From positions 32,001 to 96,000 of the IMG/VR virus record IMGVR_UViG_3300046786_000157: a stretch of 64,000 bases of DNA. One strand, given 5' to 3'. The notes under the pieces are model-generated. The model was not told the DNA's origin and made no database searches. It saw nothing but the letters and a program-made list of their open reading frames with translations. The stretch is from a virus. This document shows, piece after piece, positions 19,870 to 47,630 of the stretch. The position numbers and the translations under genes are program-made. The stretch's first letter is position 1, and each line of letters begins with the position of its first letter.

Positions 19870-19891
19870 TAAATACTTGCAGGAGTATTTA
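19870..19891 (+). promoter_or_regulatory. Late promoter embedded in an RBS-sequestering hairpin
   Basis: TAAATACTT-GCAG-GAGTATTTA: 9-bp stem (one G-U). The 5' arm holds TAAATA (19870-75); the loop and 3' arm hold the AGGAG SD and the A of ATG 19891. Confidence 0.65.
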
Positions 19892-20196
19892 TGGATACAA
19901 AGACATTAATCGCTGAAGCCAAAGCCCGCTTCAATCACAATTCAACTAAAGCATATCTCAAAGACAAATACGATGGTAAACTTATCGTAGCCGAACAAGG
20001 TGGTCTTTGGAAAGCTAACTTAGAAACAATCAATTTTCTCAACGCAACAGATAAAGAAAAGGTCATTCTAATTGACACTTTTAATAATCCTGTGCAAGTT
20101 GACAGACAAGAACTATTATCTATCTTGCAAAATACATACGAGTCTGTTATGGATGAGTGGTATAATGAATGGTCTGATTTAGAGAAAAAACGATGA
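19891..20196 (+). CDS. Hypothetical protein (101 aa), first gene of the modification operon
   Basis: Strong SD; coupled (ATGA) to the next gene. Confidence 0.75.
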   Translation: MDTKTLIAEAKARFNHNSTKAYLKDKYDGKLIVAEQGGLWKANLETINFLNATDKEKVILIDTFNNPVQVDRQELLSILQNTYESVMDEWYNEWSDLEKKR

Positions 20197-20999
20197 GCAG
20201 AGGCGCATTACTATTTGCGTTTAACTCTCCCAAGTACAACTACTATGCAATGGCAGTTGCTACAGCTAAACGAATCAATAACTTTTTGGGACTACCTGTT
20301 ACGGTCGTTACTGATGAAGAATCAGCGAAGACCGACACCTCATACGAGTTTGATAATGTAATTATTGCTGACGCTGACAAGACAAACACTAGAGACAATA
20401 CTCTTTGGCTTAATAAAGGACGATATCGTGCGTATGAGCTAAGTCCATATGACGAAACTCTATTGTTAGACACGGACTATGTTGTCAATTCAGATAAGTT
20501 GTTAAAGACATTTGATACCGGTAATGATTTTTGCTGTCACGATACTACAAGTTTCATGATGCACCCTGGTGTACCGCAAGAAGTATTAAGCGCCTATAGT
20601 TTCAACACATTGTGGGCTACTGTAATCATGTTCAGAAAAACACAACGAGCTAAACATATATTTGAATGCTTAGAAATGGTTCAGAAAAACTATAATCACT
20701 ATGCTAACATTCACAACTTTATTGGTGGTGTATTCAGAAATGACTATGCATTGACACTAGCATTACGTATTGCAAACGGGCATAGCGAAGACCCTTCAGA
20801 TATTATCCCATGGAACTTATTACACGTAGGTAAGAATACAAGTGTCTATAAGAACAATGATGATGAATTTAATACCGAATATACTGTTATGTTTGACAAT
20901 TGGCAACGTGGTAAAATCCGCAAAGAATATACAATCATTAAAGATTGTGATTTCCATGTGATGAATAAAGATAACTTTATGGAGCTAATCAATGAATAA
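20193..20999 (+). CDS. Putative GT-A fold glycosyltransferase (GT8-like)
   Basis: YELSPYDETLLLDTDY with a DxD motif, GVFRNDYA, late HVMNK motif; paralogous to the next gene. Confidence 0.6.
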   Translation: MSRGALLFAFNSPKYNYYAMAVATAKRINNFLGLPVTVVTDEESAKTDTSYEFDNVIIADADKTNTRDNTLWLNKGRYRAYELSPYDETLLLDTDYVVNSDKLLKTFDTGNDFCCHDTTSFMMHPGVPQEVLSAYSFNTLWATVIMFRKTQRAKHIFECLEMVQKNYNHYANIHNFIGGVFRNDYALTLALRIANGHSEDPSDIIPWNLLHVGKNTSVYKNNDDEFNTEYTVMFDNWQRGKIRKEYTIIKDCDFHVMNKDNFMELINE

Positions 21000-21750
21000 A
21001 GGATTTGTCATAATGGCACAGGGTGATGATTATGTTGCCTGTGCTACTGAACTAGAAGCAAGCATTAAGAAAGTTATGCCTGATGCCAATGTAACAATAG
21101 TGACAACTGATATGTTACCACACGGTGATCAGGCCCCAAACACTAATTGGAAGCTACAAAACGATTGGCAAGTTTATGAAGCTAGCCCTTACGAATATAC
21201 GATCAAGTTAGAAGCTGACATGATTATCCCACGTTCGATTGAACATTGGTGGGACATATTAAAGTCACGTGATGTTGTTGTATCAACTACTATCAGAAAC
21301 TATAAAGGTTTGATATCTGAAGTCAGGGGATACCGCAGATTTATCACTGACAATTATTTACCTGACACATACAATGCGATTACTTATTTTAAGAAATCAG
21401 ACACTGCTAAACAATTCTTTGAAATTGTACGTGATGTATTTGAGAATTGGGATGAATATAAAGCTATGTTGAAATGTAATCCTGATGAAATTGCAACTAC
21501 AGATTGGGCGTATGCAATTGCATCGCATATTGTAGGTGTTGAGAAAACACTACTACCAAGCTTTACCGAAATGGGAATGATTCACATGAAGCAATTCATT
21601 AATGAACTGCCCACTGAGAATTGGACAGACACATTGCTATACGAGATTACCCCTGATGCACTTAGAGTAAACACATATACACAATCATACCCATTTCACT
21701 ATCATGTAAAGTCATTTGCTAAACAGTTAAGGAACTATAATGGAAGATAA
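20992..21750 (+). CDS. Putative GT-A fold glycosyltransferase, paralog of 20193
   Basis: YEASPYEYTIKLEADM (ExD), YNAITYF, TDWAYAIA, PFHYHVK; aligns by eye with the preceding ORF. Confidence 0.55.
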   Translation: MNKGFVIMAQGDDYVACATELEASIKKVMPDANVTIVTTDMLPHGDQAPNTNWKLQNDWQVYEASPYEYTIKLEADMIIPRSIEHWWDILKSRDVVVSTTIRNYKGLISEVRGYRRFITDNYLPDTYNAITYFKKSDTAKQFFEIVRDVFENWDEYKAMLKCNPDEIATTDWAYAIASHIVGVEKTLLPSFTEMGMIHMKQFINELPTENWTDTLLYEITPDALRVNTYTQSYPFHYHVKSFAKQLRNYNGR

Positions 21751-22084
21751 TGAATTAATCGTTCTTTGGGAAGCTCCAAAGATTGTTCCGCCCGAATTTA
21801 GGCTATATTATGATGACACAGGTCGTGTAGTGTGTTATACTTGTGAGAAGCTTGATGGAAACTACATAGTTATAGATGCAATGACATTTGCACAGGGTAG
21901 ACCTGATGTTAGAGTAGTTGATGGGAAGTTATCAACTGTATCCTCTAATCTAGTAGTTTCAAAACTAATTCCCGATACTGATGGAATTAGTTGTTCTGTT
22001 GACGATATAAGTATTGTCATAACTGAACCTGATTATCAAGGCACTGTACAGAAATGGAAACTACACACGTATGAACTCAGATGA
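21740..22084 (+). CDS. Hypothetical protein (114 aa)
   Basis: Coupled ORF with normal codon use; no motif recognised. Confidence 0.7.
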   Translation: MEDNELIVLWEAPKIVPPEFRLYYDDTGRVVCYTCEKLDGNYIVIDAMTFAQGRPDVRVVDGKLSTVSSNLVVSKLIPDTDGISCSVDDISIVITEPDYQGTVQKWKLHTYELR

Positions 22085-23024
22085 TATTATTGACGTAGCT
22101 GATTTAGATTGTATCTATCTCAGCTATGATGAACCGCAGAAAGAAGAATTTTGGCTTAAGATTAAGAACATGGTGCCTTGGGCAAAACGTGTTGATGGAG
22201 TCAAGGGCAGTGATGCGGCTCACAAAGCCGCAGGTGAAGCAAGTGATACAGAACGTTTCATTCTAATTGACGGCGACAACATGCCTGACGAAGATTTCTT
22301 CAACATTCAATTAGACTTCACTGACAAAGAGCCTTCTTTTAAGAAAGCACAGTTTAGATGGAAAGCTGTTAACAGTATTAACGGCTTGCGTTACGGCAAC
22401 GGTGGCATGAGTAGTTGGACTAAAACCTACGTTGCTAACATGAAAACACACGAACATCAAACAGAAGGTGATGTGTCACGTATTGCTGATTTCTGTATGG
22501 GTGGCAATGATAATTTATATTGGGCTATGTACAATTGTTATAGTACAACATATCCTAACTATACGCCATTTCAAGCATGGCGTGCAGGGTTCCGTGAAGG
22601 AGTCAAGATGAGTTTAGACAGGGGTGCTAGACCATCTGTAGAGCAGTTTAAAGAAACTGTAGCAACACGCAACTTAAACAACTTAACTATCTGGCACAAT
22701 GTGGGTATGGACGCAGAGAATGGACAGTGGGCAATCATGGGTGCTCGTATGGGTACACACATGACTATGCTTACAGACTGGGACCATGCTAATGTTCAAT
22801 GGTTTGATAACTATATTGAAATGTGGGAAACAGTTAAGAACGAAGACCCATTAGAACTATCAGAATCATATGGCATTGAACTAAGTACAAAACTAGGATT
22901 GCCTATGTGTGCGTTAGATAGTGAACAATCAAAGTTCTTTAAACGCCACTACAATAGTGATAAACATAACTTAGATCCACTAGTCACTGAAATGGATGTT
23001 ATTCGTAGAATTGAAGGCTGGTAA
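22071..23024 (+). CDS. Putative GT-A-like glycosyltransferase
   Basis: DCIYLSYDEP...RVDGVKGSDAAHKAA...FILIDGDN (DxD)...N.INGLRYGNGG; homologous to the C-terminal domain of the 40742 protein. Confidence 0.55.
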   Translation: MNSDDIIDVADLDCIYLSYDEPQKEEFWLKIKNMVPWAKRVDGVKGSDAAHKAAGEASDTERFILIDGDNMPDEDFFNIQLDFTDKEPSFKKAQFRWKAVNSINGLRYGNGGMSSWTKTYVANMKTHEHQTEGDVSRIADFCMGGNDNLYWAMYNCYSTTYPNYTPFQAWRAGFREGVKMSLDRGARPSVEQFKETVATRNLNNLTIWHNVGMDAENGQWAIMGARMGTHMTMLTDWDHANVQWFDNYIEMWETVKNEDPLELSESYGIELSTKLGLPMCALDSEQSKFFKRHYNSDKHNLDPLVTEMDVIRRIEGW

Positions 23025-24421
23025 TGTCAGAACAAGACAGAATTAAAACAATCAAAATTAAGATAGAGAACGAAGCAACACCTTCATTCTGTCTTGCCAA
23101 ATGGCATCACGTAACTATGTACTTACAATCAGGTGAGACACATAGTTGTTATCATCCCAAGCCACATAAGATTCCGTTAAGTGAATTGGCTGATAACCCA
23201 TCAGCATTGCATAATACTTACGAAAAGAAACTTGAACGTAAGATGATGTTAGACGGTGGCAAGCCAGAGGGCTGTCAGTACTGCTGGAACATTGAAGCAA
23301 TGGGTCCGGACTATATAAGTGATAGGCATATCCGCAACAGTAGCATTTTTACAGAGGAGAGATATGAGCAAACCCTTAAAGGTCCTTGGGATCAAAATAT
23401 CAACCCTGAATATCTGGAAATCAACTTCGGGAACGAATGTAATTTTAAATGTGGATATTGCCACCCCAAATATTCCACTAGATTCTACAATGAGATTAAA
23501 GATCACGGTCCTGTCACTACAGTAACGAATCATCGTTGCGACATTGATTGGATGAAGCTATATCAACGTGAAGAAGAAAATCCTTATGTTGACGCATTTT
23601 GGAAATGGTGGCCTGAACTACGCAAGACATTAAACATCATGCGAGTTACTGGTGGTGAGCCTACAATGCACACTAGTACATGGAAATTGTTGAAAGAGAT
23701 TGAACAAGATCCTATGCCATGGTTAGAACTAAACATCAACAGTAACTTAGGTACAAAGACAGCACTAGTTGAAAAGTTAGCAACATCAGTAAAGACATTA
23801 TGCGATGATGGTAAGATTCGCAGTTTCAAATTGTTTACTAGCTTAGATACATGGGGACCACGTGCTGAATATATCCGTACCGGATTAGACTTAGAATTGT
23901 GGGAAAAGAACTTTCACACATATCTACAGAATACAGACAGCCCGATCACTTTCATGATTACTTTCAATATCTTTAGTGTAACAACATTCAAAGAATTCTT
24001 GGGTAAATTCTTAGAATGGCGTAAACAATATGGATGGTATGAAGACAAAGACTCTGACAAACATCGTATTCGTTTTGATACTCCGTACTTGCGTGATCCT
24101 ATTCAATATGATATGAACATTCTACCTAAAGAAGAATTCATGCCCTATATGCATGATGCATTGAAGTTCATGGAAGAACATGTAGACGACAATAAAGCAG
24201 AAGCATTTACTACAATTGAATATGAAAAGTTCAAGCGTGTAGTAGATTACATGGCTGAAACTATGTATCCTGACAGTAAATTGATAGAAGGTCGTAGAGA
24301 TTTCTACAATTGGTTCAATGAATTAGATGAACGCAGAGATGCAGACATGTTATCAGTGTTCCCCGAGTACATGAATTTTTACCGTCTTTGTCAAGAAGTT
24401 AATCAATTAAATCCAAAATGA
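23024..24421 (+). CDS. Radical SAM protein with N-terminal twitch (half-SPASM) domain
   Basis: N-terminal FCLAKW...HSCYH...GCQYCW cysteines; CxxxCxxC = CNFKCGYC; TGGEP; NINSN. Confidence 0.85.
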   Translation: MSEQDRIKTIKIKIENEATPSFCLAKWHHVTMYLQSGETHSCYHPKPHKIPLSELADNPSALHNTYEKKLERKMMLDGGKPEGCQYCWNIEAMGPDYISDRHIRNSSIFTEERYEQTLKGPWDQNINPEYLEINFGNECNFKCGYCHPKYSTRFYNEIKDHGPVTTVTNHRCDIDWMKLYQREEENPYVDAFWKWWPELRKTLNIMRVTGGEPTMHTSTWKLLKEIEQDPMPWLELNINSNLGTKTALVEKLATSVKTLCDDGKIRSFKLFTSLDTWGPRAEYIRTGLDLELWEKNFHTYLQNTDSPITFMITFNIFSVTTFKEFLGKFLEWRKQYGWYEDKDSDKHRIRFDTPYLRDPIQYDMNILPKEEFMPYMHDALKFMEEHVDDNKAEAFTTIEYEKFKRVVDYMAETMYPDSKLIEGRRDFYNWFNELDERRDADMLSVFPEYMNFYRLCQEVNQLNPK

Positions 24422-25713
24422 CAAAGAAAATAAAAAAGCTTTCTAAGAAGGCAATACCTAGTAAAGATATATTGACTAACGGTAAGTCATTCTGTATCAT
24501 CCCGTGGGTTCACTTGCACACTACTCCTAGCGGGGTAGCCGCCCCCTGCTGTATTGCTGAATCGTGTGCTACTGAAGAGGGTGTAGGTAACTCTAGAACA
24601 CAGTCATTGATGGAAATTGTGAACTCTGATAAGATGAAGGAACTACGTTTGGATATGTTATCAGACGTAAGAAATCCTGAATGTATAAAATGTCATAATC
24701 ACGAAGATCAAAATGTAGTGAGTTTTCGTAAACATGCAAATAAAGATTATGAAGACTACTTTGATGATGTAATGTCACAAACAATGAGTGACGGATCATT
24801 GAAAGAATTCAAGATGCGTTACTTTGACATACGTTTCAGTAACATTTGCAACTTCAAATGCAGAACATGTGGATCAGGATTCAGCACACAATGGGAACAA
24901 GAAGATTTAAAGAACAATGTATGGTTTGCCAGAACAATTCCAAAGAATGATAACAAAGACTTTTTGGGTGAAGTTGTAGGGCAAATCGAACACATAGATA
25001 CTGCATATTTTGCGGGCGGAGAGCCCTTGATTACAGAAGAACATTATGTTATACTTGAAGAAATGATCCGTGAGGGCAGAACGGATATCCAATTAAGGTA
25101 TAATACTAATTTGAGTAATTTAAAGTTTAAAGACAAAGATTTACTAAGTCTTTGGAGCAAGTTTAAGAAACACATTATGATTTACGCTAGTGTGGATCAT
25201 TACGGAGATCGTGCTGAATACATTAGAAGTGGTACTGATTGGGGAGTAGTAGAGAACAATTTCTTAACAGCTAAGAAAACACCCTATATACACTTGCAAA
25301 TGAATACTGTGTTAAGCGTATTCAATTGCTTAACTATACACGAATTCTATCAATATTTGATAGACAAAGAACTATATAAGCCCAATGATAATATCTATAG
25401 CTTATATAACATGTCTACCCCTGAACATCTATCATGTCATATCTTGCCCTCAACGTTGAAAGAGCGCGGTAAGTTAAGCATTCAGAATGCTATGAAAGTA
25501 ATGAGTGACCATAAATTTACTCAGGGTAAAATAAATGAACTAGAAAAGTCAATTGGTTGGATTTACGCAAGAGATACATGGGAAGAACAAAAGACAAAGT
25601 TCCAACAAGAATTGATGAGATTAGATAAAATTCGAGGTGAAAGCTTTGAAAGAACATTCCCTGAATTGAGAGAGCTATTACCATTTAACAGAAAAAGATT
25701 ATTTCCTATATGA
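24418..25713 (+). CDS. Radical SAM protein with N-terminal twitch domain
   Basis: FCIIPW...PCC...CIKC; CNFKCRTC; FAGGEP; YNTN. Confidence 0.85.
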   Translation: MTKKIKKLSKKAIPSKDILTNGKSFCIIPWVHLHTTPSGVAAPCCIAESCATEEGVGNSRTQSLMEIVNSDKMKELRLDMLSDVRNPECIKCHNHEDQNVVSFRKHANKDYEDYFDDVMSQTMSDGSLKEFKMRYFDIRFSNICNFKCRTCGSGFSTQWEQEDLKNNVWFARTIPKNDNKDFLGEVVGQIEHIDTAYFAGGEPLITEEHYVILEEMIREGRTDIQLRYNTNLSNLKFKDKDLLSLWSKFKKHIMIYASVDHYGDRAEYIRSGTDWGVVENNFLTAKKTPYIHLQMNTVLSVFNCLTIHEFYQYLIDKELYKPNDNIYSLYNMSTPEHLSCHILPSTLKERGKLSIQNAMKVMSDHKFTQGKINELEKSIGWIYARDTWEEQKTKFQQELMRLDKIRGESFERTFPELRELLPFNRKRLFPI

Positions 25714-26948
25714 CAATTAACTTAAACAAAGAATATTTGCTGAATGAAAGCAAAGTGTTTTGTATGTTCCCGTGGATGCACTTGAACGTAACACCAAAGG
25801 GAGATATCTACCCATGCTGTTCAAATGATTACACAAAGCCCTACGGAAACACTAAGGAAATGTCATTGAAAGAAGCCTTCAATACTGATAAGATGAAGGA
25901 ATTACGTTTGGATATGTTAAATGACAGACCAAATTCAATGTGTGATTTCTGCTACAAACACGAAGATTCAGGCCCTCATTCATTCCGTAACTATAGCAAA
26001 GAACAATTCAGTAAGCACTTTGATGAAATTGTGCCCACTACATTAGAAGACGGTACAGTCCCTGAATTTAAAATGCACTATTTTGATATTCGCTTTAGTA
26101 ATATCTGTAACTTCAAATGCAGAACATGTGGCTCTGAATTCAGTAGTCAATGGGGAGCAGAAATGCGAGCCAATCATGATCCAAAACACCCTATTGTAAT
26201 TCATGCTGATTCAAAGGGTAACTTGTTGAATGAAGTATTAGAACATGTAGAACATATCGACCTAGCGTACTTTGCAGGTGGCGAACCAACACTAACCGAA
26301 GAGCATTACATTATGCTTGAGGAAATGATTCGCAAAGGCCGTACTGACATTACATTACGCTACAATACTAACGCTAGTAATATCAAGTTCAAAGACTATG
26401 ATTTGTTAGACATGTGGAAACACTTTAAGAAGATTGAATTAAGTTGCTCAGTAGATCATTACGGTGAACGTGCTGAATGGTTGCGTAGTGGTACTGATTG
26501 GGGCGTTGTTGAAAGTAACTTACTAAAGTTTAGAGACTTAGAATATGTTAGTTTCCAGATGAATACTGTATTCAGTATCTTTAATTATAGCACAATTGGT
26601 GAATTCTATCAGTACCTGAAAGATAAGGGAATTGTACGTAGAGAAGACTGGTATCACAGTCTATATCTTGCAGTACATCCTAGCTATTACTGTGCAAAAT
26701 CATTACCTAAATCATTGAAGATTGAAGCCGCAAGTAAAGCAATGGCATGGGCAAACAATAACACACAAGATGGAACAAGCTTATCACGACTAATCACAGA
26801 CGCTGTTAACTTTGCATCTAGTAGTGATACCTGGCAAGAAAACAAAGACATTTTCATGCAACACACAGGTTCAATTGATAGAATTAGAAATGAAAGTTTA
26901 TGGAAAACTTTCCCCGAATTAAATAGCTTGAGAGACTTAACAGAATAA
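25710..26948 (+). CDS. Radical SAM protein with N-terminal twitch domain (close paralog of 24418)
   Basis: FCMFPW...PCC...CDFC; CNFKCRTC; FAGGEP; long stretches identical to 24418 (YFDIRFSNICNFKCRTCGS, RSGTDWGVVE). Confidence 0.85.
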   Translation: MTINLNKEYLLNESKVFCMFPWMHLNVTPKGDIYPCCSNDYTKPYGNTKEMSLKEAFNTDKMKELRLDMLNDRPNSMCDFCYKHEDSGPHSFRNYSKEQFSKHFDEIVPTTLEDGTVPEFKMHYFDIRFSNICNFKCRTCGSEFSSQWGAEMRANHDPKHPIVIHADSKGNLLNEVLEHVEHIDLAYFAGGEPTLTEEHYIMLEEMIRKGRTDITLRYNTNASNIKFKDYDLLDMWKHFKKIELSCSVDHYGERAEWLRSGTDWGVVESNLLKFRDLEYVSFQMNTVFSIFNYSTIGEFYQYLKDKGIVRREDWYHSLYLAVHPSYYCAKSLPKSLKIEAASKAMAWANNNTQDGTSLSRLITDAVNFASSSDTWQENKDIFMQHTGSIDRIRNESLWKTFPELNSLRDLTE

Positions 26949-26949
26949 T

Positions 26950-28221: not shown

Positions 28222-29174
28222 TCGCAATTGAAGCCCCAGAACCGTACATTGCAGTAACATGGCAAGTTAACAACTATTGTAACTTCAAATGCAGTTATTG
28301 CAACCCGGGCAATTGGGGAGGAGAGAATCCTAATGATGGTAACTTAGACAAGTACATTGAGAACTTGGGAGTTATCATCAATCGCTATAAAGAAGTAGGG
28401 TATAAGAACTTTAAATTCTTCTTTAGTGGTGGAGAACCTACAGCTTGGCGTAACTTTATTCCTATCTGTGAATGGTTAAAACAAGAGATCCCTGATTGTA
28501 CTCTCGCAGTCAATACTAATCTAAGTCGTCCGTTAGCTTGGTGGCAGAAACATTATCATTTGTTTGATGACATTGTTGCAAGCTTTCACGTTGAATTCAG
28601 TAACAAAGAAAAGTATAAAGAAAACAATATCTTCTTATGTGACAAAGTGAACTATCTTTGCACAAAGATGCTGATGCATGAAGAAAGATTCTGGGAGATC
28701 GTTGAGTACGGTGAGCATTTGAAAACAGTAATGCCTAATTACGTATTAGAATGGACTCCGTTGTACGATGAATTGAGCGTGAATGCAGGTCCATGGCAGT
28801 ATAAAGACCCTGAGAAAGAAAAGTTCCTCAATGAACACAACACTGAGATGAACTTTACAGTTGACAAACCCTACAATCCTAGCAAATGCGTAAGCTATAA
28901 CAGATACGAAGATGATTATGTTTGCCCAACAAACAGTAATGAAATCATTGTAGACCGACAAAACTTCTTTAGTGGGTGGCAATGTAATGTGGGGGATAGT
29001 ATTTTTATCAACCCTACAGGTCTTGTGAGCTTTGCAAGTTGCGGAATGGGTGGCATTGTAGGGCATATTTTAGAAGATGTAAGCAATATTGGTCCCAAGA
29101 AGATTACATGTAGAAAAGAACATTGTATTTGTGGAACTGATATTATCATCCCCAAAGTTATGAGCAATAAATAA
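28206..29174 (+). CDS. Radical SAM protein with C-terminal twitch-like Cys cluster
   Basis: CNFKCSYC; FSGGEPT; C-terminal WQCNVG...ASC...CRKEHCICGTD; GTG start. Confidence 0.85.
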   Translation: MGRKLIAIEAPEPYIAVTWQVNNYCNFKCSYCNPGNWGGENPNDGNLDKYIENLGVIINRYKEVGYKNFKFFFSGGEPTAWRNFIPICEWLKQEIPDCTLAVNTNLSRPLAWWQKHYHLFDDIVASFHVEFSNKEKYKENNIFLCDKVNYLCTKMLMHEERFWEIVEYGEHLKTVMPNYVLEWTPLYDELSVNAGPWQYKDPEKEKFLNEHNTEMNFTVDKPYNPSKCVSYNRYEDDYVCPTNSNEIIVDRQNFFSGWQCNVGDSIFINPTGLVSFASCGMGGIVGHILEDVSNIGPKKITCRKEHCICGTDIIIPKVMSNK

Positions 29175-38395: not shown

Positions 38396-38407
38396 TAGAA
38401 AGTGAAT

Positions 38408-39240: not shown

Positions 39241-40733
39241 ACTATATTGGTATAAGCTCAGGTTTTCATGACGCAGCCTTAAGCGTCATTGATAGTAATG
39301 GCAACATCGTGTTCGCTGGTCACAGTGAACGATACAGTAAGCACAAGCACGACAAACATTTGTCAATGGGTCTCGTTGAAGATGCATTGAAATACTGTGA
39401 TAGTCGTGATGTAGAGATTCATTATTACGAACGTCCGTGGATGAAGTTTCTACGTCAAGTTCGTTCAGGTGAAAAGCCTAAATTAGCAAACTTGTTTGTT
39501 AAAGACATTATCGGCACTGGTCTATTGCATAAACTACAAGATGGTCGTGGTGGCAAAGTTCATACACACAATCATCACTTGAGTCATGCGGCAGCAGGGT
39601 TCCAAACAAGCCCTTATGATGACGCTACTGTTGTTGTGATTGATGCTATCGGCGAGTTTGATACTATCAGTATTTGGAATGCTTACTACGATAAGAATGG
39701 TGTAGCACAATACAAAAAACTATGGGGACAGAAGTATCCAGATAGTATAGGATTATTCTATTCAGCAATGACTGAACGTGTAGGCTTACGTCCATTAGAT
39801 GAAGAATACATTTTGATGGGTATGGCAGCATATGGCAATGACAAACCATTAAAAGACATGTCTTCTGAGTTAATAGAATCATATAAAGATATTATTTTTA
39901 AAGATAATTTACATACCGGCGTATCTTCTAATTTCTTAGAAGGCGTTGATGATATGAGTATCGCCACTAGCGCACAATTGATTGCAGAACAATTAATTAC
40001 TAACGTTATGAGTAGAGCAAGAAGTTTAAGCAATAGTAAGAATCTTGTATACGGTGGCGGTGTAGCATTAAACTGTCTAGCGAATAGACTTATAGGAGAA
40101 TATTATGAGAATATTTGGATTATGCCTAATCCTGGTGATGCTGGTTCTAGCCTTGGTGCTGCCTGTCTCGGCTACGGTAAACGTGTTACTTGGAATAATA
40201 GCTTTATTGGTCATTGTATTGAAGGCAGCTATCCCACTAATGCTATTCTTGACAGTCTGCTTAGTGATAGGATTGTTGGGGTTGCTAGTGGTAGGGCTGA
40301 ATTCGGACCGAGAGCACTTGGACATAGAAGCCTACTTGCAGACCCCAGAGGACAAGAAATAAAGGATAAAGTAAATGAAATTAAACGCAGACAGAAGTTC
40401 AGACCTTTCGCCCCAGTCATTTTGGAGGAGTATGCTGATGATTATTTTGATATGCCTCGTGGCTTCAGTAATAGCAGGTATATGCAAGTCATCAGTCGTT
40501 GTAGGCATCCTGACTTATTTCCTGCTATCGTTCATAATGATGGGACTTCACGTGTTCAGACTGTTCCAAAAGATGGAAGTGGAATCAGAGAACTCCTTGA
40601 AAAGTGGTACATCTTGACAGGATGCCCAATGTTGTTAAACACATCACTTAACATACGAGGTGAACCAATGGTCAATGATCGTAGTGACGCTGACAGATTT
40701 GAAAAACTTTATAATGTCAAAGTCATTTCATAA
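39237..40733 (+). CDS. Carbamoyltransferase (NodU/CmcH/TobZ family)
   Basis: HDAA, ERYS..KHD, HHLSHAA, GRAEFGPRALGHRS, FRPFAP, HNDGTSRVQTV, LLNTSLN. Confidence 0.92.
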   Translation: MNYIGISSGFHDAALSVIDSNGNIVFAGHSERYSKHKHDKHLSMGLVEDALKYCDSRDVEIHYYERPWMKFLRQVRSGEKPKLANLFVKDIIGTGLLHKLQDGRGGKVHTHNHHLSHAAAGFQTSPYDDATVVVIDAIGEFDTISIWNAYYDKNGVAQYKKLWGQKYPDSIGLFYSAMTERVGLRPLDEEYILMGMAAYGNDKPLKDMSSELIESYKDIIFKDNLHTGVSSNFLEGVDDMSIATSAQLIAEQLITNVMSRARSLSNSKNLVYGGGVALNCLANRLIGEYYENIWIMPNPGDAGSSLGAACLGYGKRVTWNNSFIGHCIEGSYPTNAILDSLLSDRIVGVASGRAEFGPRALGHRSLLADPRGQEIKDKVNEIKRRQKFRPFAPVILEEYADDYFDMPRGFSNSRYMQVISRCRHPDLFPAIVHNDGTSRVQTVPKDGSGIRELLEKWYILTGCPMLLNTSLNIRGEPMVNDRSDADRFEKLYNVKVIS

Positions 40734-40736: not shown

Positions 40737-40741
40737 ATATT

Positions 40742-43700
40742 ATGCTAAGAGATGTATTTTATTACGGACAGAAACCTAACGCCCATCCAAGAGAAAAGTT
40801 TGCACAAGACTTAGTTGATGCTAGAAATCAAGCAACAACAGAACACTTTTGGATCATAAACGAATTTTGCGACTATACAAAGTTTGATTGGGACTTTGAT
40901 TTTGAATTTTTACACGATGACGATGTATGGGCTGAGAGTCATAACAATGTATGGCCTAGTAAATATCAAAAAGATAGTGGCACATGGTTATGTGCAAAAG
41001 AATTTAGTGCTATCATAATCTATCGCAATGACGTAGACCCTGTACCCAGAAAAACTGTTTCACATAAACACTGGCAAGTATTATCGCCTATTGACGAAAC
41101 TAAGTTTGACTTTGGGTGGCATCCTGATCCATCTGACCCTCCGTATATCTACGTTTGGGGCAATCAGTGGTACCCAGGCACAGTAATGCCCACAGTAGAA
41201 TATCATGTTGATGGTGCAACACAGCGCAAATTTGTTGATACAAGTTTGGCGATACTAGCACAGCAACCTAAAAACTTTGAAGTGTTTGAAGAAGTTGACC
41301 ACTTTGACTTTAGTTGGGTTCCTAATCCAACTAGCCCACCTTATATCTATGCTTGGGGCAATCAATGGAATGACCCTGAAGATAAAGTTTCAGTGCAGTA
41401 TGTAGTAGAAGGTGGTACAGAATATAAGTTCATGCATAACAATGCTAGACGCAAACCCTGCATGGACAATTGGGTAGTACCTACTAACGTAGACGTTAGT
41501 AACTTTGATTTTAGTTGGGAGCCAAGCCCAGCAGAACCACCGTTCATATACCAGTTCGGCACACAACATCAAAAGACAGGTGGTCCAAGATACATAGTTG
41601 AAGATGCAACAGAGGTTAAGTACGTTGACATACTAAAAGCCAAAGCATTACCGTCAACAGAAAATTGGACTCTTCCAAATAATATAGACATTGATAACTT
41701 TGATTTTAGTTGGCACCCCGATGATACTAGCCCTCCTTATATCTATTACTTTGCAACACAGTGGGCATTAAGTGGTGGACCTATCTATACAGTACCTGAA
41801 GCGACCGAAGTCAAATACGTAGAAGATGTTCAAGCAAAAGCATTACCAAACAAAGCTAATTGGGAAGTGCCTGCATTCATTGATAGTGATAGCTTTGACT
41901 TTAGCTGGCACCCATATGTAGAAGATGAGCCTTATATCTATCAATTCGGCACACAATGGCAGAAGACAGGTGGCCCTAAGTATATCACCCCCGGCTCACA
42001 CAAGAACAGTCCTGTAAAGTATATTGATACACGTATTCTTAAAGCAAAACGTTTACCATCAAAGCAAGGGTTTACTCATGTGAATGGATCGTTAATTGAA
42101 GATTTTGATTACTCTTGGCACCCTGACACAACAGAAGAACCATACATATATAAATTCGGAAGTCAATGGTATTCAGCAGAGATACTATCTGCGATTGAAT
42201 ATGTTGTTCCCGGTGCAACACAAGTAAAATATGTAACAGATATTATTGCTACGTTAGCACCCTCTAAACAAAACTGGGTTATTGCAGAAGATGTTGAAGT
42301 AGCTAACTTTGACTTTAGTTGGGTGCCTAACCCACATGATCCTCCCTACATTTATCGCTGGGGTAACAAATATGTTAGTAACAAATTCAAGCCCACACTA
42401 GAATATCATGTACCCGATGCAACTGATATCAAGTACATGGATGACAATGTGGAAGTATTACCTGAATGGGATCGCTGGCAACTATTTGGCAATGTTGATA
42501 AAGAAAGTTTTGATTTCTCATGGAGACCTGATCCACGTGAACCTGCTTATATCTATCGTTGGGGTAACAAATACGTTAGTAACAAGTTTAAACCTACGGT
42601 AGAATATCATGTACCAGGAGCAACTGACATTAAGTACATGGATGATAGTGTAGGTGTGCTTCCTGAATGGGATCGTTGGGAAATACCTGATGACATTGAT
42701 AAACAGAGTTTTGATTTCTCATGGAGACCTGATCCATTAGAAGCTGATCTTATTTGGCAGTTCGGTACACAATGGCAGAAGACAGGTGGACCAAGATATG
42801 TAGTTCCTGGCGCCACAGAAGTCAAATACATAGACAAACTAAAAGCTCGCCGCTTACCATCACCCGACAATTGGGAGATGCCGGACAAAGTAAAGATAGC
42901 TAAGTTCGATACTAGCTGGCATCCTGATGCTACTGACGGCCCATACATATATCAATTTGGTACTCAGTGGGTTTTGACAGGTGGACCGAGATATGTAGTT
43001 CCTGGCGCAACTGAAGTTAAGTTCGTTGAAGAAAATAATGCAATTGCCGCACCAGATCACGCACCTTGGATAACACCTAGTGATATTGATGGCATCAGCT
43101 TTGATTACTCTTGGCACCCTCACCCTGATGACCCACCATTCGTCTATCAATTTGGTACACAGTGGCAAAAGACAGGCGGACCTAAATATATTGCTGAAGG
43201 TGCGATTGATGGTGAGACTGCTGTAAAATATATTGACACTCGTATTTTGAAATCTAGACGTTTGCCTAGTAGAAACAACTGGGTTATTGAAAATGCAATT
43301 GATGTAAGCACATTCGATTTTAGTTGGCACCCGGATGCAAACTCTCCTAAGTATATCTATCAATTCGGTACATTGAGTAATGATACAGATGGCCCACGAT
43401 ACGAAGTACCTGATAATAATGGTGAAATTGTATTCTTAGAACGCACTAAGCTTAAAGATGATGAAGTAGCATTCCCTCACTATTTTATTGAAACTACACT
43501 TGATGATTTAGTTAAGAATCATCCTAACGAAGTATTTTGGGCATTAAACCCTGATATTGATTACTCTGCATTTGATTTCAATTGGAGACCTAGTATTGAG
43601 CAAGCACGTTATATACACGCATTTGGCTCAGAGGATAACATCAATACACAAACATACTTTGTGTCAGGTCCTATGTGGCATCAAGGCTACAGAGATATCA

Positions 43701-45481
43701 ACTATGTTGAGAAAAAGATAGAAGTTAACTATATCATTGATTTGTTCTTTGTGGATAGAGGTAACAAAGAATCAAACTCTCGCTTTGAGAGATTGAAACA
43801 ACAATTTGGAAATAGAATACAAAAAACTCGCTACTTGAACAGTTGGGTTGATACAATCAATCGCTGTATCAATCGTTCATCATCTAATCTATGTTGGATA
43901 CTTAATAGTGAACTAGACTATATTGGTTTTGATTTCAAGTATTATCCTAACCCATGGCAGATGAATATGGTTCATGTATTTGGAACACAGTGGAGTCATT
44001 GGGGCACAACCTTCATGGTCAATCGTGAAACGTTTGCAAAAGATACCAAATATGTTAAAATTATTGAACACCTTTCTAATTTGAACTTTGTTAAAGATAG
44101 AAATAGTAGAGCCACTAACTGTTTATATGATGTGTTCTTAGTAGATCATGGTAACCGTAGTGTCACTAAGGTATTGAGAACAATTCAAAGTCGTGTATCA
44201 TCTGATATACCTGTCAATCTTGTAAAGTACACCGATAGTTATTTTGAAACATTTAAAGAACTATTAAAGACACTTCCTGAAAAGAAAGAGCATTACATAT
44301 GGATATGCTCTAGTGTTTGTGATTATGCTAAATTTGATTTTAGTTATATCTGTGATCCATACGCAAAAGAACAACTGCATGTGTTTCCTAGTGACAAACA
44401 GAAGTTTGGTGATACATTCTTAGTTAACGTAAACAAACTACGTGAATTGATAGCAGACATGAGTAAGTTGGAAGAGTATACAAAGATTAATTACAACCAA
44501 CATCAACGTGTTGCTAGACTACCTGCACCATCTATCATAACTGAAGGTGATACACATGTATCTAGTATCAATACTGACTTTGACTTCCCGTATGCAATCT
44601 TTACTGCGAACGACAACACAGACAACGGTATTATTGATGTTGAACCAATGAGCTTATGGTCTCCTGAACACAAGAACATCATTGTTACAACTACGGGTGC
44701 AACTAGAATCATTGCACCTAAAGAAGTTAAAGAATATGTTAAGCGTGAATTGTATGATTATCCGTACATCAAGACTAACAGCAAGCTAGGCAAGTCTACT
44801 CCAATGGACATTGTGTTCTTATCTAATGGTGAGGCAGGTGCAGACGCTAACTACGAACATTTGTTAAGAGTTACACATGGATTAGCTAATCGTGTTGTTA
44901 GAGTAGACGGAGTAAATGGTCGTGTGCAAGCATATCATGCGGCTGCTGATGCAAGCAATACACCTTGGATGTTCACTGTGTTTGCTAAGTTAAAAGTCAG
45001 CAACAAGTTTGATTGGAACTGGCAACCTGATAGAATGCAATTACCTAAACATTATGTATTCCACGCTAAAAACCCAGTTAACGGATTGGTCTATGGTCAC
45101 CAAGCTATGATTGCATATAACAAGAAAATTACATTGAAGAACAACGGTAAGGGTCTTGACTTTACAATGGACGATGAACATGAGATTGTTCCTTTGTTGT
45201 CAGGTGTTGCTAATTTTAATACTGATGTTTGGTCTACGTGGCGTACTAGCTTCCGTGAAGTTGTTAAGTTGAAATCCGACACAACAGACGAGAGTAAAGA
45301 ACGATTGAATGTTTGGATGACAGAGGCGTCAGGTAATCATAGTGAATGGTGTCTACGTGGCGCACAGGATGCTAGTGATTACTTTGATAGTGTAGGCGGT
45401 GACTTCTTTGAACTACGTGACAGTTATGAATGGGCATGGTTAAAGAACAGATTCCTGACATTGTATCCTAATGAAACCTGA
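40742..45481 (+). CDS. 1,579-aa tandem-repeat protein with degenerate GT-A-like C-terminal domains
   Basis: 12 tandem ~65-70-aa repeats (W..P..D...FDFSWxP...PYIYxFGxQW..GGPxY.VPGATEVKY), then several GT-like units. The last unit (DIVFLSNGE...RVDGVNGRVQAYHAAA...NPVNGLVYGH) is homologous to 22071. Confidence 0.7.
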   Translation: MLRDVFYYGQKPNAHPREKFAQDLVDARNQATTEHFWIINEFCDYTKFDWDFDFEFLHDDDVWAESHNNVWPSKYQKDSGTWLCAKEFSAIIIYRNDVDPVPRKTVSHKHWQVLSPIDETKFDFGWHPDPSDPPYIYVWGNQWYPGTVMPTVEYHVDGATQRKFVDTSLAILAQQPKNFEVFEEVDHFDFSWVPNPTSPPYIYAWGNQWNDPEDKVSVQYVVEGGTEYKFMHNNARRKPCMDNWVVPTNVDVSNFDFSWEPSPAEPPFIYQFGTQHQKTGGPRYIVEDATEVKYVDILKAKALPSTENWTLPNNIDIDNFDFSWHPDDTSPPYIYYFATQWALSGGPIYTVPEATEVKYVEDVQAKALPNKANWEVPAFIDSDSFDFSWHPYVEDEPYIYQFGTQWQKTGGPKYITPGSHKNSPVKYIDTRILKAKRLPSKQGFTHVNGSLIEDFDYSWHPDTTEEPYIYKFGSQWYSAEILSAIEYVVPGATQVKYVTDIIATLAPSKQNWVIAEDVEVANFDFSWVPNPHDPPYIYRWGNKYVSNKFKPTLEYHVPDATDIKYMDDNVEVLPEWDRWQLFGNVDKESFDFSWRPDPREPAYIYRWGNKYVSNKFKPTVEYHVPGATDIKYMDDSVGVLPEWDRWEIPDDIDKQSFDFSWRPDPLEADLIWQFGTQWQKTGGPRYVVPGATEVKYIDKLKARRLPSPDNWEMPDKVKIAKFDTSWHPDATDGPYIYQFGTQWVLTGGPRYVVPGATEVKFVEENNAIAAPDHAPWITPSDIDGISFDYSWHPHPDDPPFVYQFGTQWQKTGGPKYIAEGAIDGETAVKYIDTRILKSRRLPSRNNWVIENAIDVSTFDFSWHPDANSPKYIYQFGTLSNDTDGPRYEVPDNNGEIVFLERTKLKDDEVAFPHYFIETTLDDLVKNHPNEVFWALNPDIDYSAFDFNWRPSIEQARYIHAFGSEDNINTQTYFVSGPMWHQGYRDINYVEKKIEVNYIIDLFFVDRGNKESNSRFERLKQQFGNRIQKTRYLNSWVDTINRCINRSSSNLCWILNSELDYIGFDFKYYPNPWQMNMVHVFGTQWSHWGTTFMVNRETFAKDTKYVKIIEHLSNLNFVKDRNSRATNCLYDVFLVDHGNRSVTKVLRTIQSRVSSDIPVNLVKYTDSYFETFKELLKTLPEKKEHYIWICSSVCDYAKFDFSYICDPYAKEQLHVFPSDKQKFGDTFLVNVNKLRELIADMSKLEEYTKINYNQHQRVARLPAPSIITEGDTHVSSINTDFDFPYAIFTANDNTDNGIIDVEPMSLWSPEHKNIIVTTTGATRIIAPKEVKEYVKRELYDYPYIKTNSKLGKSTPMDIVFLSNGEAGADANYEHLLRVTHGLANRVVRVDGVNGRVQAYHAAADASNTPWMFTVFAKLKVSNKFDWNWQPDRMQLPKHYVFHAKNPVNGLVYGHQAMIAYNKKITLKNNGKGLDFTMDDEHEIVPLLSGVANFNTDVWSTWRTSFREVVKLKSDTTDESKERLNVWMTEASGNHSEWCLRGAQDASDYFDSVGGDFFELRDSYEWAWLKNRFLTLYPNET
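41070..43450 (+). repeat. Intragenic tandem coding repeat array (12 units of ~200 nt)
   Basis: The recurring FDFSW(H/R/V)P and QFGTQWQKTGGP motifs are visible in protein and DNA (cagaagacaggtgg recurs). Boundaries approximate. Confidence 0.8.
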
Positions 45482-46157
45482 TGTATATATCTGTGGATGT
45501 AGCTTCTCTACCGGGGCCTATTGTACTGACACACATGTCGAATATAATACCCCGTATCCAGAACTGTTTTGTATAGATAAAACGCTATCCTTCGAAAATA
45601 TTGCATTCAATGGATCATCAAATTATGGAATTGCGAAACAAGTTGAATACGCAATTAAACAACAACCTAAATTAATTTTAGTTAACGTTACTACGTCATT
45701 GAGATTTGACTGGACTATACCAGAGTCACGATTAGAAGATTTACCTACACTTGCTAATTTTGTATTCAACAACAAATTGAATACATTAGAGCCAGACACA
45801 GAAAAATGCGTACACTCGTCTTCTTTGATAACACTAGTCAATGGAAATAAAAATAGAATACTCACTGAATATGTAGCAACATTTGTAGACCCGTGGTTGA
45901 AGAGTGATATGGATAGGTTAATAATTTTAGGTATGATACACCAATTGAAGGTATCAAAAATCCCATATCAGATTGTAAATTTTAATTCTGATTATACATT
46001 TTCGGCACCCTATGTGCTTGAGTACCCTTATAGTGTGTTCACTAAAAATTTTCCAGTTGCGACAGACCCTAATCACTTTAACAGTGCAGGCCACTTAGCA
46101 TTATCTAAAGTATTACTAAGTACAATACCCAAAACTATTGACGTTAACTCTGTATAA
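45471..46157 (+). CDS. SGNH-fold protein
   Basis: CGCSFS, NGSSN, DPNHF..GH. Confidence 0.55.
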   Translation: MKPDVYICGCSFSTGAYCTDTHVEYNTPYPELFCIDKTLSFENIAFNGSSNYGIAKQVEYAIKQQPKLILVNVTTSLRFDWTIPESRLEDLPTLANFVFNNKLNTLEPDTEKCVHSSSLITLVNGNKNRILTEYVATFVDPWLKSDMDRLIILGMIHQLKVSKIPYQIVNFNSDYTFSAPYVLEYPYSVFTKNFPVATDPNHFNSAGHLALSKVLLSTIPKTIDVNSV

Positions 46158-46166
46158 ATATATACT
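46138..46166 (+). promoter_or_regulatory. Composite tmRNA promoter: sigma70 TTGACG-17-TATACT plus late TATAAATA
   Basis: -35 at 46138-43, -10 at 46161-66, full T4 late consensus TATAAATA at 46153-60. Confidence 0.75.
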
Positions 46167-46237
46167 GTAAGTTATTGCTGTATGAAGCAAAGAGAAAAGT
46201 GTTCTGGACGCGGGTTCGACTCCCGCCTGGTCCACCA
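46166..46237 (+). ncRNA. ssrA: tmRNA acceptor piece (ends in encoded CCA)
   Basis: ...TGTTCTGGACGCGGGTTCGACTCCCGCCTGGTCCACCA; 5' end inferred from the promoters. Confidence 0.85.
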
Positions 46238-46248
46238 AAAGTGATCTT

Positions 46249-46383
46249 ATGAATGATAAAATGAAAATTTGTGTAGTGTGTGAGAACTACAATGAGCAGA
46301 ATAAATCCTGTAAGTTGTGTGGGTGCTACATGCCTGCAAAAACATTAGTACCGTTCGTTAAATGCCCCGCAGGCAAATGGTAA
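46249..46383 (+). CDS. 44-aa six-cysteine protein encoded inside the tmRNA intervening segment
   Basis: Hand-translated MNDKMKICVVCENYNEQNKSCKLCGCYMPAKTLVPFVKCPAGKW*. The CxxC...CxxCGC.M..K......CP.GKW pattern matches a small phage Cys-rich family I recall as DUF6171 (unverified). Confidence 0.8.
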   Translation: MNDKMKICVVCENYNEQNKSCKLCGCYMPAKTLVPFVKCPAGKW

Positions 46384-46396
46384 GATTATTTCTGAT

Positions 46397-46615
46397 GGGC
46401 CAGTCATGGTTTCGACAGGGCAAAGAGTAACAGAGTGGACAGCTCGGGAAAGCAGAACCCGTAGGATTGGTAGAATGATCTGAAGCAAGCTAGTCTTGAC
46501 AGTAGGATTTTCCGGTCGTAGAAGCAAAAAACCATAAATGCAAACGATTCAGTTTACGCATTGGCTGCTTGATAAAAGCATCCTAGGGTAAGACATACCT
46601 AGTAACAGAAACTCA
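46397..46615 (+). ncRNA. ssrA: tmRNA coding piece
   Basis: Starts GGGCCAG, carries the A-rich resume context (AAAAAACCATAAAT-GCA) and the tag, then a short CTAGG/CCTAG hairpin and a terminator. 3' end approximate. Confidence 0.85.
46540..46575 (+). other. tmRNA proteolysis-tag reading frame ANDSVYALAA**
   Basis: GCA AAC GAT TCA GTT TAC GCA TTG GCT GCT TGA TAA. Confidence 0.92.
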
Positions 46616-46616
46616 A

Positions 46617-46643
46617 GAAAGGCTCTTCGGAGCCTTTCCTTTT
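46617..46643 (+). terminator. Intrinsic terminator after tmRNA
   Basis: GAAAGGCTC-TTCG-GAGCCTTTC: 9-bp stem with a UUCG loop, followed by CTTTT. Confidence 0.85.
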
Positions 46644-46650
46644 ATAAATA
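46643..46650 (+). promoter_or_regulatory. Late promoter TATAAATA, probably leaderless
   Basis: Abuts the terminator U-tract; ends 5 nt before ATG 46656; no SD. Confidence 0.65.
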
Positions 46651-46655
46651 TTTTA

Positions 46656-47630
46656 ATGAAAAACTTCTTTTGTCCTGCGCCGTGGCGCTCAATTTATTAC
46701 CATGTAAACAAGTCTGCGGTGTGTTGCATTAGCTCTAAGAGATTAGACATGTCTCCTAATGAGTTTCTCAAGAGTGATTACTTAGAAAATTTAAAAACTA
46801 AATTTTTAAACAATGAGTTTGATGAAACATGCACTGGATGTAAGAGACTAGAAGATGCAGGACTACAAAGCATACGCCAACATATGGTTGCATTGTATGG
46901 TGAAGACATAACTCCTAAGATAGATTACATGGAGTTAAGAACTAGCAACTTGTGCAACTTTCAATGTAGGATGTGTAATGCTGATAACAGTTCATTGATT
47001 GCAGGTGAAGTTCGTAACATAACAGACAAAGACTGGGACGAGATATTAACTCTATCAGAAAATTTGAAATACTTGACGTTAACTGGTGGCGAACCATTGT
47101 TGATTAAACACTACTATCAACTATTAGACCATTTAATAGAGAAGAATAGAACAGACATTGAACTAAGAATATACACAAATGCTAGCGTATACAATCCAGT
47201 CTTCATTGAAAAAATGTTAAAGTTTAATACGATTGTAAATCTAAGCATAGATGGAGTAGGAGAAACTGCTAGTACTCAGCGTGTAGGCACTGACTGGAAC
47301 GTAGTCAATGAAAACATACAAAAGTTTTTAGCCTTACCAGTTAAGGTAAAATTCCATTCTACCTTTACAGTTTTGTCTATAGTAGATGTACATTCATTAG
47401 CAGAGTATTTTGCTACGATAGCAAAGACTAACCCGCACTGTGGTTTTTCTGCACATACTGCAATTCTTCCTAAGGACTTAACAATCTATGGTATAGATTC
47501 TTCTAGTGCGGTCACTGCAATAGAAAGCATTGACAAGGCATTAGTAATATTGACTGATCCTAGATTTGGACAACTACGTAAGCAACTTATGTCGTACAGA
47601 ACCATAATTGACAACAAAACCAAAACGTGA
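46656..47630 (+). CDS. Compact radical SAM protein with N-terminal twitch domain
   Basis: FCPAPW...VCC...CTGC; CNFQCRMC; TGGEP; YTN. Confidence 0.85.
   Translation: MKNFFCPAPWRSIYYHVNKSAVCCISSKRLDMSPNEFLKSDYLENLKTKFLNNEFDETCTGCKRLEDAGLQSIRQHMVALYGEDITPKIDYMELRTSNLCNFQCRMCNADNSSLIAGEVRNITDKDWDEILTLSENLKYLTLTGGEPLLIKHYYQLLDHLIEKNRTDIELRIYTNASVYNPVFIEKMLKFNTIVNLSIDGVGETASTQRVGTDWNVVNENIQKFLALPVKVKFHSTFTVLSIVDVHSLAEYFATIAKTNPHCGFSAHTAILPKDLTIYGIDSSSAVTAIESIDKALVILTDPRFGQLRKQLMSYRTIIDNKTKT

Follow-up and report, generated by a model that had tools for sequence, protein, structure and literature searches.

A 28-kb block of predicted sugar-building and sugar-editing enzymes, rich in radical SAM proteins, behind the baseplate and fiber genes of a jumbo phage

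We analyzed a 64,000-nt stretch of viral DNA (hereafter the window), which corresponds to bases 32001-96000 of the 121-kb contig of IMG/VR record IMGVR_UViG_3300046786_000157, estimated to be ~35% complete, and which carries a 28-kb block of enzyme genes at window positions 19891-47630. A previous reading made from the letters and open reading frames (ORFs) alone, without database searches (the sequence-only reading), had noticed this block, and our results confirm it, with corrections, as real genetic content behind the baseplate and fiber genes of this phage. The block comprises 25 ORFs of at least 100 residues and one of 32 residues, all on the plus strand, as is every gene discussed here, and most neighboring genes either share 1-16 nt or leave gaps of 8 nt or less, in agreement with the previous description of a one-strand, mostly coupled cluster. 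Its complement of a GDP-mannose 3,5-epimerase (GME), GT-A- and GT-B-type glycosyltransferases (GTs), SGNH proteins, a carbamoyltransferase, and radical S-adenosylmethionine (SAM) enzymes, the last of which belong to sugar-type loci in bacteria, fits the glycan-building and tailoring pathway proposed at the time. We consider it highly probable that the block encodes a late, cytoplasmic pathway that both builds and edits sugars, and we give slightly less than even credence to the virion being the target of that pathway. The virion is favored as target because of the gene content of the block, its linkage to virion genes, and a late motif that it has in common with a fiber gene, and further because its products lack membrane helices, no modified-base route is seen, and a PBCV-1 capsid enzyme appears, weakly (E 0.02), as a structural neighbor. 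New here are the agreement in gene order with a cultured phage in which the giant protein has been proven to be part of the virion, the link of a micropeptide in the block to DUF5989, and the negative outcome of base-modification checks in a complete relative.

By protein similarity, the phage groups with the RaK2, 121Q, Atu_ph07, PA5oct, and RsoM2USA jumbo myoviruses, and none of 50,697 phage records matched at the DNA level when 25 kb of the block served as a megablast query. Comparisons were made with 34 related viral contigs from IMG/VR, including one complete 364-kb genome with terminal repeats. Leading into the block are a homolog of a baseplate wedge protein (1,123 residues), a giant protein of 6,409 residues that ends at 16856, a fiber-like protein with a Pfam Peptidase_G2 intramolecular chaperone (IMC) domain (17676-18884), and a Ser/Thr/Gly-rich protein of 316 residues (18895-19845), and a PHROG "virion structural protein" match lies among the genes at 16857-19845. 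The order of giant protein and fiber genes followed by transferases recurs in 22 of the 34 contigs, and the complete relative keeps both the full order and the whole block. Gene-content comparison among related phages, which had been suggested as a check, thus supports the placement of the block next to the tail genes, with the linkage conserved as far as the cultured phage described below. The block does directly follow Ser/Thr/Asn-rich proteins, as had been stated, but their combined Ser, Thr, and Asn content (28-36%) is usual for phage fibers rather than exceptional. Downstream, the content of the block varies between relatives in the number of GT-B paralogs and in the presence of the epimerase, as would be expected for glycan diversity, and a lineage related to cyanomyoviruses has the array behind another Ser/Thr-rich structural protein, of 1,818 residues. 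A profile search with the family of the transferase candidate at 20193 gave over 3,700 clusters when sequences were grouped at 90% identity, the matches being close, unannotated relatives that convey abundance and not function.

A further comparison is with the cultured Ralstonia phage RsoM2USA (MG752970), which retains the same order at 28-42% identity. Specifically, a baseplate wedge protein (ORF362), a giant protein (ORF361), a fiber-like protein (ORF355), and a GT8-like pair (ORF353 and ORF352) are followed by a GT-A protein (ORF350), a twitch radical SAM protein (ORF349), and a second GT-A-like domain (ORF348). ORF361, the homolog of the 6,409-residue protein of the window, was found in virions by liquid chromatography-tandem mass spectrometry (PMC8504454). 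The RsoM2USA homologs are all annotated "hypothetical protein", and that of the protein encoded at 22071 is 42% identical. In the same phage, an SGNH-like protein, a second twitch radical SAM protein, a peptide ending in DPFIYK, and a carbamoyltransferase are encoded elsewhere in the genome, where the homolog of the third SGNH protein of the block (38402) adjoins the twitch radical SAM and carbamoyltransferase genes. This split suggests that there are two modules, a fiber-linked transferase core and a tailoring set, which have been fused in the window.

Late expression, previously asserted for the whole block, is supported indirectly by an argument made entirely from motifs, for which T4 late promoters form the basis of analogy. 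A late-type TAAATA motif on the plus strand (19870-19875) precedes the first gene of the block, 19891, with constant spacing to the ribosome-binding site, and recurs there in all of the distinct relatives compared (20 of 20); the motif also precedes the fiber gene 17676 in 19 of 19, gene 29178 in 9 of 16, and gene 36137 in 7 of 13. It stands as well before the transfer-messenger RNA (tmRNA) gene and before 46656. Of the five TA(A/G)ATA motifs that had been proposed as sub-operon starts, those at 19870, 29168, 36098, and 46643 are TAAATA, but 40731 reads TAAGTA. Across the window, the longer ATAAATA is depleted (13 occurrences against 26.7 expected), and 12 of the 13 lie on the plus, coding strand; ten of these 12 fall in short gaps before genes when read from the coordinates, while an automated count over the whole contig finds that 10 of 18 copies lie no more than 60 nt upstream of a start on the same strand. 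A copy of TATAAATA at 39160 was rejected as a promoter, as it lies inside the micropeptide ORF, where the complete relative differs (FFKN versus FYKY). A different signal begins only after 47.9 kb: four TTGACRATAAATC boxes on the plus strand (47893-50419; 0.3 expected), each with a -10-like hexamer ~17 nt later, precede small genes as well as genes for a MoxR/CobS-like AAA ATPase and a DUF2201/VWA protein, and form a separate promoter class of sigma70 type in which the conserved -35 region is extended. That the block and the fiber genes have one promoter type, unlike the neighboring ATPase/VWA region, supports late expression. Near its end, the block is interrupted by a permuted, two-piece tmRNA gene (46145-46663, plus strand; ARAGORN, tag ANDSVYALAA; Rfam tmRNA_permuted 110.8 bits, beta_tmRNA 97.2 bits), preceded by TATAAATA and standing outside the pathway. 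Its score as a Betaproteobacteria-type tmRNA and the kinship with a Ralstonia phage are a hint that the host is betaproteobacterial.

Three GT-A-like proteins had been claimed for the block, and invariant Asp residues, a weak fold match, and language-model neighbors all point the same way. Two of them, the GT8-like nucleotide-sugar transferase candidates at 20193-20999 and 20992-21750, belong to paralogous families (hhalign 98.6%). Following a Rossmann-like N-terminal half, the first has a DxD motif whose D93 and D95 are invariant in the family, and the second has E74-A75-D76 at the aligned place. Their nearest language-model neighbors are viral clusters of nucleoside diphosphate (NDP)-sugar transferase, GT8, and Nucleotid_trans type (0.96-0.97), which we treat as leads and not as proof, and neither protein matched a Pfam, NCBIfam, or PDB sequence. 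The third, at 22071-23024, is the most conserved core enzyme, with a mean column identity of 81% and invariant D67 and D69, and its family counts 1,425 clusters at 50% identity. Its AlphaFold model is of moderate quality (predicted local distance difference test [pLDDT] 65); all of the 50 best VIA rows for this model are GT-A or NDP-sugar nucleotidyltransferase folds (Z 6-7.8, residues 4-165), and its best Foldseek match is the PBCV-1 capsid glycosyltransferase mentioned above. The combination of an NDP-sugar transferase fold and a DxD motif suggests, through a weak fold match, that it is a GT-A-fold protein. Profile searches of the PDB with the three GT-A-like families and the GT-B family returned chance-level rows only.

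The sugar supply of the block is more firmly assigned. The extended short-chain dehydrogenase/reductase (SDR) at 30485-31462 matches plant GME (PDB 2c59) over residues 3-321 with E 9e-91 and 308 bits, some 200 bits above any other SDR sugar enzyme, the next family being UDP-glucuronate decarboxylase at 100 bits. This full-length similarity bears out the GME-like epimerase of the sequence-only reading and identifies the protein, at the sequence level, as of bona fide GDP-mannose 3,5-epimerase type. It is flanked by a GT-B glycosyltransferase at 29178-30488 (AlphaFold pLDDT 82; Foldseek E 4e-6; VIA Z about 12) and by a paralog of the latter at 31459-32532 (hhalign 99.2% over the C-terminal, donor-binding half), an arrangement that fits transfer of the L-hexose made by the epimerase. 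Invariant residues are E317, T318, E329, K330, K333, and P334 in the 29178 family and T217, E218, and K219 in the 31459 family. The donor-binding motif of GT10 enzymes is of the type ...E(N/T)..(x)..TEK.... The two transferases had been called GT10-like, but the Glyco_transf_10 hidden Markov model (HMM) matched none of the 14 GT-B family members (E up to 1) and not the window protein (0.01), and a Pfam scan of all 14 members found no glycosyltransferase family. Among the top structural rows are the GT10 entries 5zoi (Z 11.3) and 8d0o (Z 10.8), level with members of unrelated GT-B families, namely Gtf3, EXT1, and the T4 beta-glucosyltransferase (Z 11-12). Hence, 29178 is a GT-B protein whose likeness to GT10 is unproven, and the more detailed idea of GT10-type L-galactose transfer is plausible but likewise unproven.

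Between these enzymes and the end of the block lies a soluble protein of 1,579 residues (40742-45481) built of 12 tandem units, then degenerate units, and then a C-terminal domain related to the protein at 22071. It has 17 FDxSW-type motifs, 12 of them at a period of 65-71 residues with the unit FDFSW..P..PYIY.FG, and its last 130 residues match 22071 at 27% identity (E 5e-6), with the DxD replaced. No Pfam family matched it, and its homolog in the complete relative is 55% identical. The label of a giant GT-repeat protein given to it before was reasonable as regards the repeats and the GT-A-related C-terminus but is weakened by the loss of the DxD, and we provisionally treat the protein as non-catalytic.

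Four radical SAM paralogs in tandem (starting at 23024, 24418, 25710, and 26950, and together spanning 23024-28221) and a fifth at 46656-47630, which has TATAAATA upstream at 46643, are members of the N-terminal-twitch NCBIfam family NF033640 (N_Twi_rSAM), with 309, 371, 367, and 368 bits for the tandem set and 200.9 bits for 46656 against a cut-off of 170. In three of the tandem paralogs, Pfam places SPASM (residues 18-93) N-terminal to Radical_SAM (residue ~130 onwards), and a five-sequence alignment shows invariant Cys columns; the N-terminal Cys-rich domain precedes the CxxxCxxC of the core, and 46656 keeps the same pattern. A search of the PDB with the twitch profile found no significant relative, the best rows being viperin and MoaA at E about 0.08. 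The count of six twitch enzymes made previously is thus right for five, while the sixth, at 28206-29174, scores only 31-32 bits against NF033640 and is instead a radical SAM protein with a C-terminal Cys cluster: it falls just under the Pfam Radical_SAM cut-off (28.9 versus 29.5 bits), carries CxxxCxxC over residues 25-32 together with further Cys residues at 260, 279, 302, 307, and 309, and has MoaA as its nearest, non-significant match among PDB sequences. The two cobalamin enzymes were also recovered. In both, a B12-binding domain lies N-terminal to a radical SAM core, as in class B radical SAM enzymes, with 36137-38395 clearing both models (Radical_SAM 71 bits; B12-binding 44 bits, cut-off 32.1) and 33394-35316 scoring 48 bits for Radical_SAM and 30.3 bits, just under the cut-off, for B12-binding. 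The former follows the TAAATA at 36098 and weakly matches the B12 methyltransferase TokK in the PDB.

Twitch radical SAM arrays also exist in bacteria, where up to eight paralogs are found together, mostly in Bdellovibrionota and Flavobacteriales (e.g., L077:4052-16048, among loci L037-L091), and co-occur with carbamoyltransferases, GDSL fusions, DegT and class-III aminotransferases, split transketolase, and B12-dependent radical SAM enzymes. By analogy, this context points to carbohydrate-type chemistry, and since the bacterial arrays lie away from virion genes, the tailoring module would need no virion to act. The arrays, some of which come with both a carbamoyltransferase and a DUF5989 peptide, are uncharacterized counterparts of the phage tailoring module. 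On the phage contig as a whole, seven proteins exceed the NF033640 cut-off, five of them in the block. One more belongs to a second sugar module at 55377-59590, beyond the span first described and conserved in the complete relative, which encodes, by Pfam, an extended SDR of dehydratase/epimerase type, a radical SAM protein, a DegT aminotransferase, and the N-terminal-twitch protein (328 bits); it resembles a branch that makes amino-deoxy sugars and could supply the main block. The seventh is encoded outside the window, at contig bases 110201-111361, far from the block.

The remaining tailoring functions are four SGNH-signature proteins and a carbamoyltransferase. The SGNH proteins (32529-33446, 35313-36080, 38402-39154, and 45471-46157) were borne out by their signature, with G9, C10, S11, G71, N74, and H268 of SGNH blocks I, II, III, and V invariant in an alignment of 16 sequences from the four paralog groups. 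Their HMM support is sub-threshold throughout (Lipase_GDSL in three of 16, best E 0.0014; DUF6071 in six of 16, best E 9e-8), with weak matches to both models for the first protein and a DUF6071-like character for the third, and the best PDB row for the set is an SGNH protein at E 0.3. The NodU/CmcH-type carbamoyltransferase (39237-40733) was recovered with both of its domains above cut-off (Carbam_trans_N 117 bits; Carbam_trans_C 162 bits). Its start is overlapped by a basic micropeptide of 32 residues (39142-39240) that was absent from the earlier gene list and ends in DPFIYK. The complete relative has an 84% identical peptide in the corresponding position, and the tail recurs in RsoM2USA. 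The phage micropeptides match nothing in Pfam. At a Bdellovibrionota locus (L053), the peptide in this position is a DUF5989 protein (E 1e-22) ending in APFIYTVF, and we read the phage micropeptide as a probable divergent, soluble version of this type of carbamoyltransferase partner. The two resemble each other in being tiny, coupled ORFs with a PFIY ending and differ in that the phage peptide is basic, without the hydrophobic helix, and unmatched by the Pfam model. An alternative identity as the precursor of a peptide made on the ribosome and modified after translation (RiPP) was downgraded, given that the bacterial counterpart is a DUF5989 protein and is coupled to carbamoyltransferases. A carbamoyltransferase with a small partner of this type is also known from saxitoxin clusters, in the SxtI-SxtJ-SxtK arrangement. 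Beyond the radical SAM, B12-binding, carbamoyltransferase, and epimerase proteins, no product of the block matches a Pfam or NCBIfam family at the usual thresholds.

From these parts, a pathway can be proposed in which unusual nucleotide sugars would be made in the cytoplasm late in infection, assembled into a glycan, and then heavily edited, the likeliest acceptor being the baseplate-attached giant protein and the fibers of the phage itself. The GME-type epimerase would supply GDP-L-galactose or GDP-L-gulose, the GT-A core could start the chain on Ser/Thr-rich virion proteins, and the GT-B enzymes may add the L-hexose. The five N-terminal-twitch enzymes and the C-terminal-cluster radical SAM protein might act on sugar units or NDP-sugars by radical epimerization, dehydration, or C-C chemistry, the two B12-dependent enzymes would C-methylate, the SGNH proteins would add or remove O-acyl groups, and the carbamoyltransferase with its DUF5989-like micropeptide would O-carbamoylate. 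The 1,579-residue repeat protein may serve as a non-catalytic scaffold or glycan-binding platform. The adsorption apparatus would thereby come to bear a glycan coat that varies between lineages and that affects recognition of the host or shields the particle. In its fullest form, this becomes the hypothesis that the N-terminal-twitch arrays are a new class of glycan or NDP-sugar editors that write a lineage-specific glycan on the giant baseplate protein and fibers, jointly with B12-dependent methylation, O-carbamoylation, and O-acylation and with the repeat protein as scaffold, a conjunction that we offer tentatively and regard as doubtful in its entirety.

Several observations weigh against the virion-directed pathway. 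There is no direct sign of a glycan on any virion of this lineage, and the acceptor cannot be read from sequence; the GT-A assignments depend on weak matches in fold and on neighbors in a language model, and lateness is read from a motif. NF033640 is a catalogue family with no known reaction and no solved structure detectable by sequence. In RsoM2USA, the carbamoyltransferase, SGNH, and twitch module lies ~90 kb from the fiber-linked transferase core, and the two halves may have different targets. Finally, the homologous bacterial loci are unlinked to virion genes, and the module must act on something that is present in bacteria as well. The last two points lend some weight to another explanation, namely that the product is a free, peptide- or cofactor-linked glycoconjugate, resembling an aminoglycoside or nucleoside antibiotic or a decorated peptide, and perhaps directed against competitors or host defenses. 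Radical SAM arrays with B12-dependent members, a carbamoyltransferase, aminotransferases, and SGNH proteins are typical of secondary-metabolite tailoring, and a conserved micropeptide sits within the block. However, that peptide is better explained as a DUF5989-type carbamoyltransferase partner, Pfam finds neither a RiPP recognition element nor a transporter in the block, no exporter or membrane protein is encoded there, the linkage between the transferase core and the fibers is deep and recurrent, and the block has its late promoter in common with the fiber gene. We judge a free product to be unlikely.

Two further explanations, export of a surface polysaccharide and hypermodification of DNA bases, are disfavored. 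In the first, the block would alter the O-antigen or capsule of the host during infection, for example to block superinfection. Lipopolysaccharide pathways commonly include GT8-like and SGNH O-acyl enzymes, and peripheral soluble transferases can work on lipid-linked intermediates. Just such a function was proposed for GT8-rich islands with radical SAM cassettes beside the tail fibers of pelagimyophages (PMC7029224). The block, however, encodes no initiating polyprenyl-phosphate or other lipid-carrier transferase, flippase, polymerase, ligase, or ATP-binding cassette (ABC) exporter, and no membrane component of a Wzx/Wzy- or ABC-type pathway was found among the products of 19891-47630. None of its 26 products contains a membrane helix (no 19-residue window with a Kyte-Doolittle mean of at least 1.8), and all are predicted to be soluble. 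These absences weaken the earlier suggestion that the block remodels the host surface. Further, a promoter of the fiber-gene type would be late for an exclusion function, and strong conservation of the block extends across phages that must infect different hosts, so we rate this explanation as improbable. Attachment of a tailored sugar to phage DNA, in the manner of glucosylated or arabinosylated hydroxymethylcytosine or of other bases that bear glycans, seems very improbable to us. Carbamoyl-type base modifications are known in phages. The T4 alpha- and beta-glucosyltransferases do appear among the GT-B structural neighbors of 29178, tied with many others, and a thymidylate-synthase-family gene (54216) lies 7 kb downstream of the block. 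Glycosyltransferases also act on modified bases in phages (Pyle et al. 2024, cited in PMC12619734). But end-to-end alignment of the 54216 protein with canonical ThyA gives 260-300 bits, and in the complete relative the thymidylate synthase family has only one member, which is again canonical ThyA. Searches of the complete relative for TET/JBP and TGT/DpdA found no match, the TET/JBP search having had no positive control. A single canonical ThyA without TET/JBP or TGT/DpdA leaves no visible precursor route to a sugar-bearing base, and the late-type motifs and tail-module position of the block are likewise at odds with one.

If the fullest form of the hypothesis is correct, abundant aquatic jumbo phages would possess a virus-made glycan code that governs adsorption or evasion, and a glycan on the adsorption apparatus would bear on host range, receptor recognition, and escape from defenses or grazing. 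It would additionally provide a reaction and a substrate for a catalogued radical SAM family that lacks both, and that forms arrays in predatory bacteria as well. The question extends beyond this contig, as blocks of this type are very common in metagenomes, and it is directly testable because RsoM2USA carries the conserved core.

Other features of the region can be described more briefly. Between the giant protein and the fiber gene are a 55-residue ORF (16857-17024), which is preceded by a double ATAAATA and has a C-terminal part conserved in relatives, and a 206-residue protein (17024-17644) that is 84-98% identical across relatives. The first gene of the block (19891-20196) encodes 101 residues, is 59-92% identical in relatives, and has only a sub-threshold match to DUF6402, and the 114-residue protein at 21740-22084 is 47-84% identical in relatives and matches no family. 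G+C content is about 0.38 across the whole window. Downstream of the second sugar module is a pair resembling i-spanin and o-spanin (59595-60298), in which a 147-residue protein with an N-terminal membrane helix overlaps an 87-residue protein that starts with an LLAGC box of lipoprotein type, just before a T4 gp9/10-like baseplate gene, and a class I SAM-dependent methyltransferase (61945-62637) lies among the baseplate-region genes. We considered the name "Moraphages" (PMC12619734) for this lineage but established no link, and neither radical SAM nor tmRNA nor carbamoyltransferase is mentioned in that paper.

Few systems are known in which a phage encodes the glycosylation of its virion, and these have simple transferase sets; the block described here would be a 26-gene, radical SAM-rich version. 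Glycosylation of capsid and tail tube has been described for mycobacteriophages (Freeman et al. 2023, PMC10527164, cited in PMC12619734). The mycobacteriophage and PBCV-1 (A64R, PDB 2p6w) systems resemble the block in having soluble, virus-encoded GTs beside or within structural modules, and differ from it in having few transferases and no radical SAM arrays, B12-dependent radical SAM enzymes, carbamoyltransferase, or SGNH set; in those systems, the enzymes act in the cytoplasm on virion proteins, as is proposed for the block. In our collection, RsoM2USA is the sole cultured phage to encode homologs of the GT8-like, GT-A-like, and repeat-protein C-terminal domains, and it carries a miniature and split counterpart, without the GME/GT-B triad, a B12-dependent radical SAM enzyme, or a long repeat protein in the regions examined. 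A published analogue, an island of the same kind, is the host recognition cluster of pelagimyophages and cyanomyophages, in which a GT8-rich island lies by the tail fibers and a giant protein and radical SAM cassettes vary between close relatives (PMC7029224). That cluster was described at the level of annotation, in T4-like marine phages, and was read as modifying the host O-chain (PMC7029224), whereas the block characterized herein belongs to the jumbo group of RaK2, Atu_ph07, and RsoM2USA and combines a fixed transferase core with a defined tailoring set.

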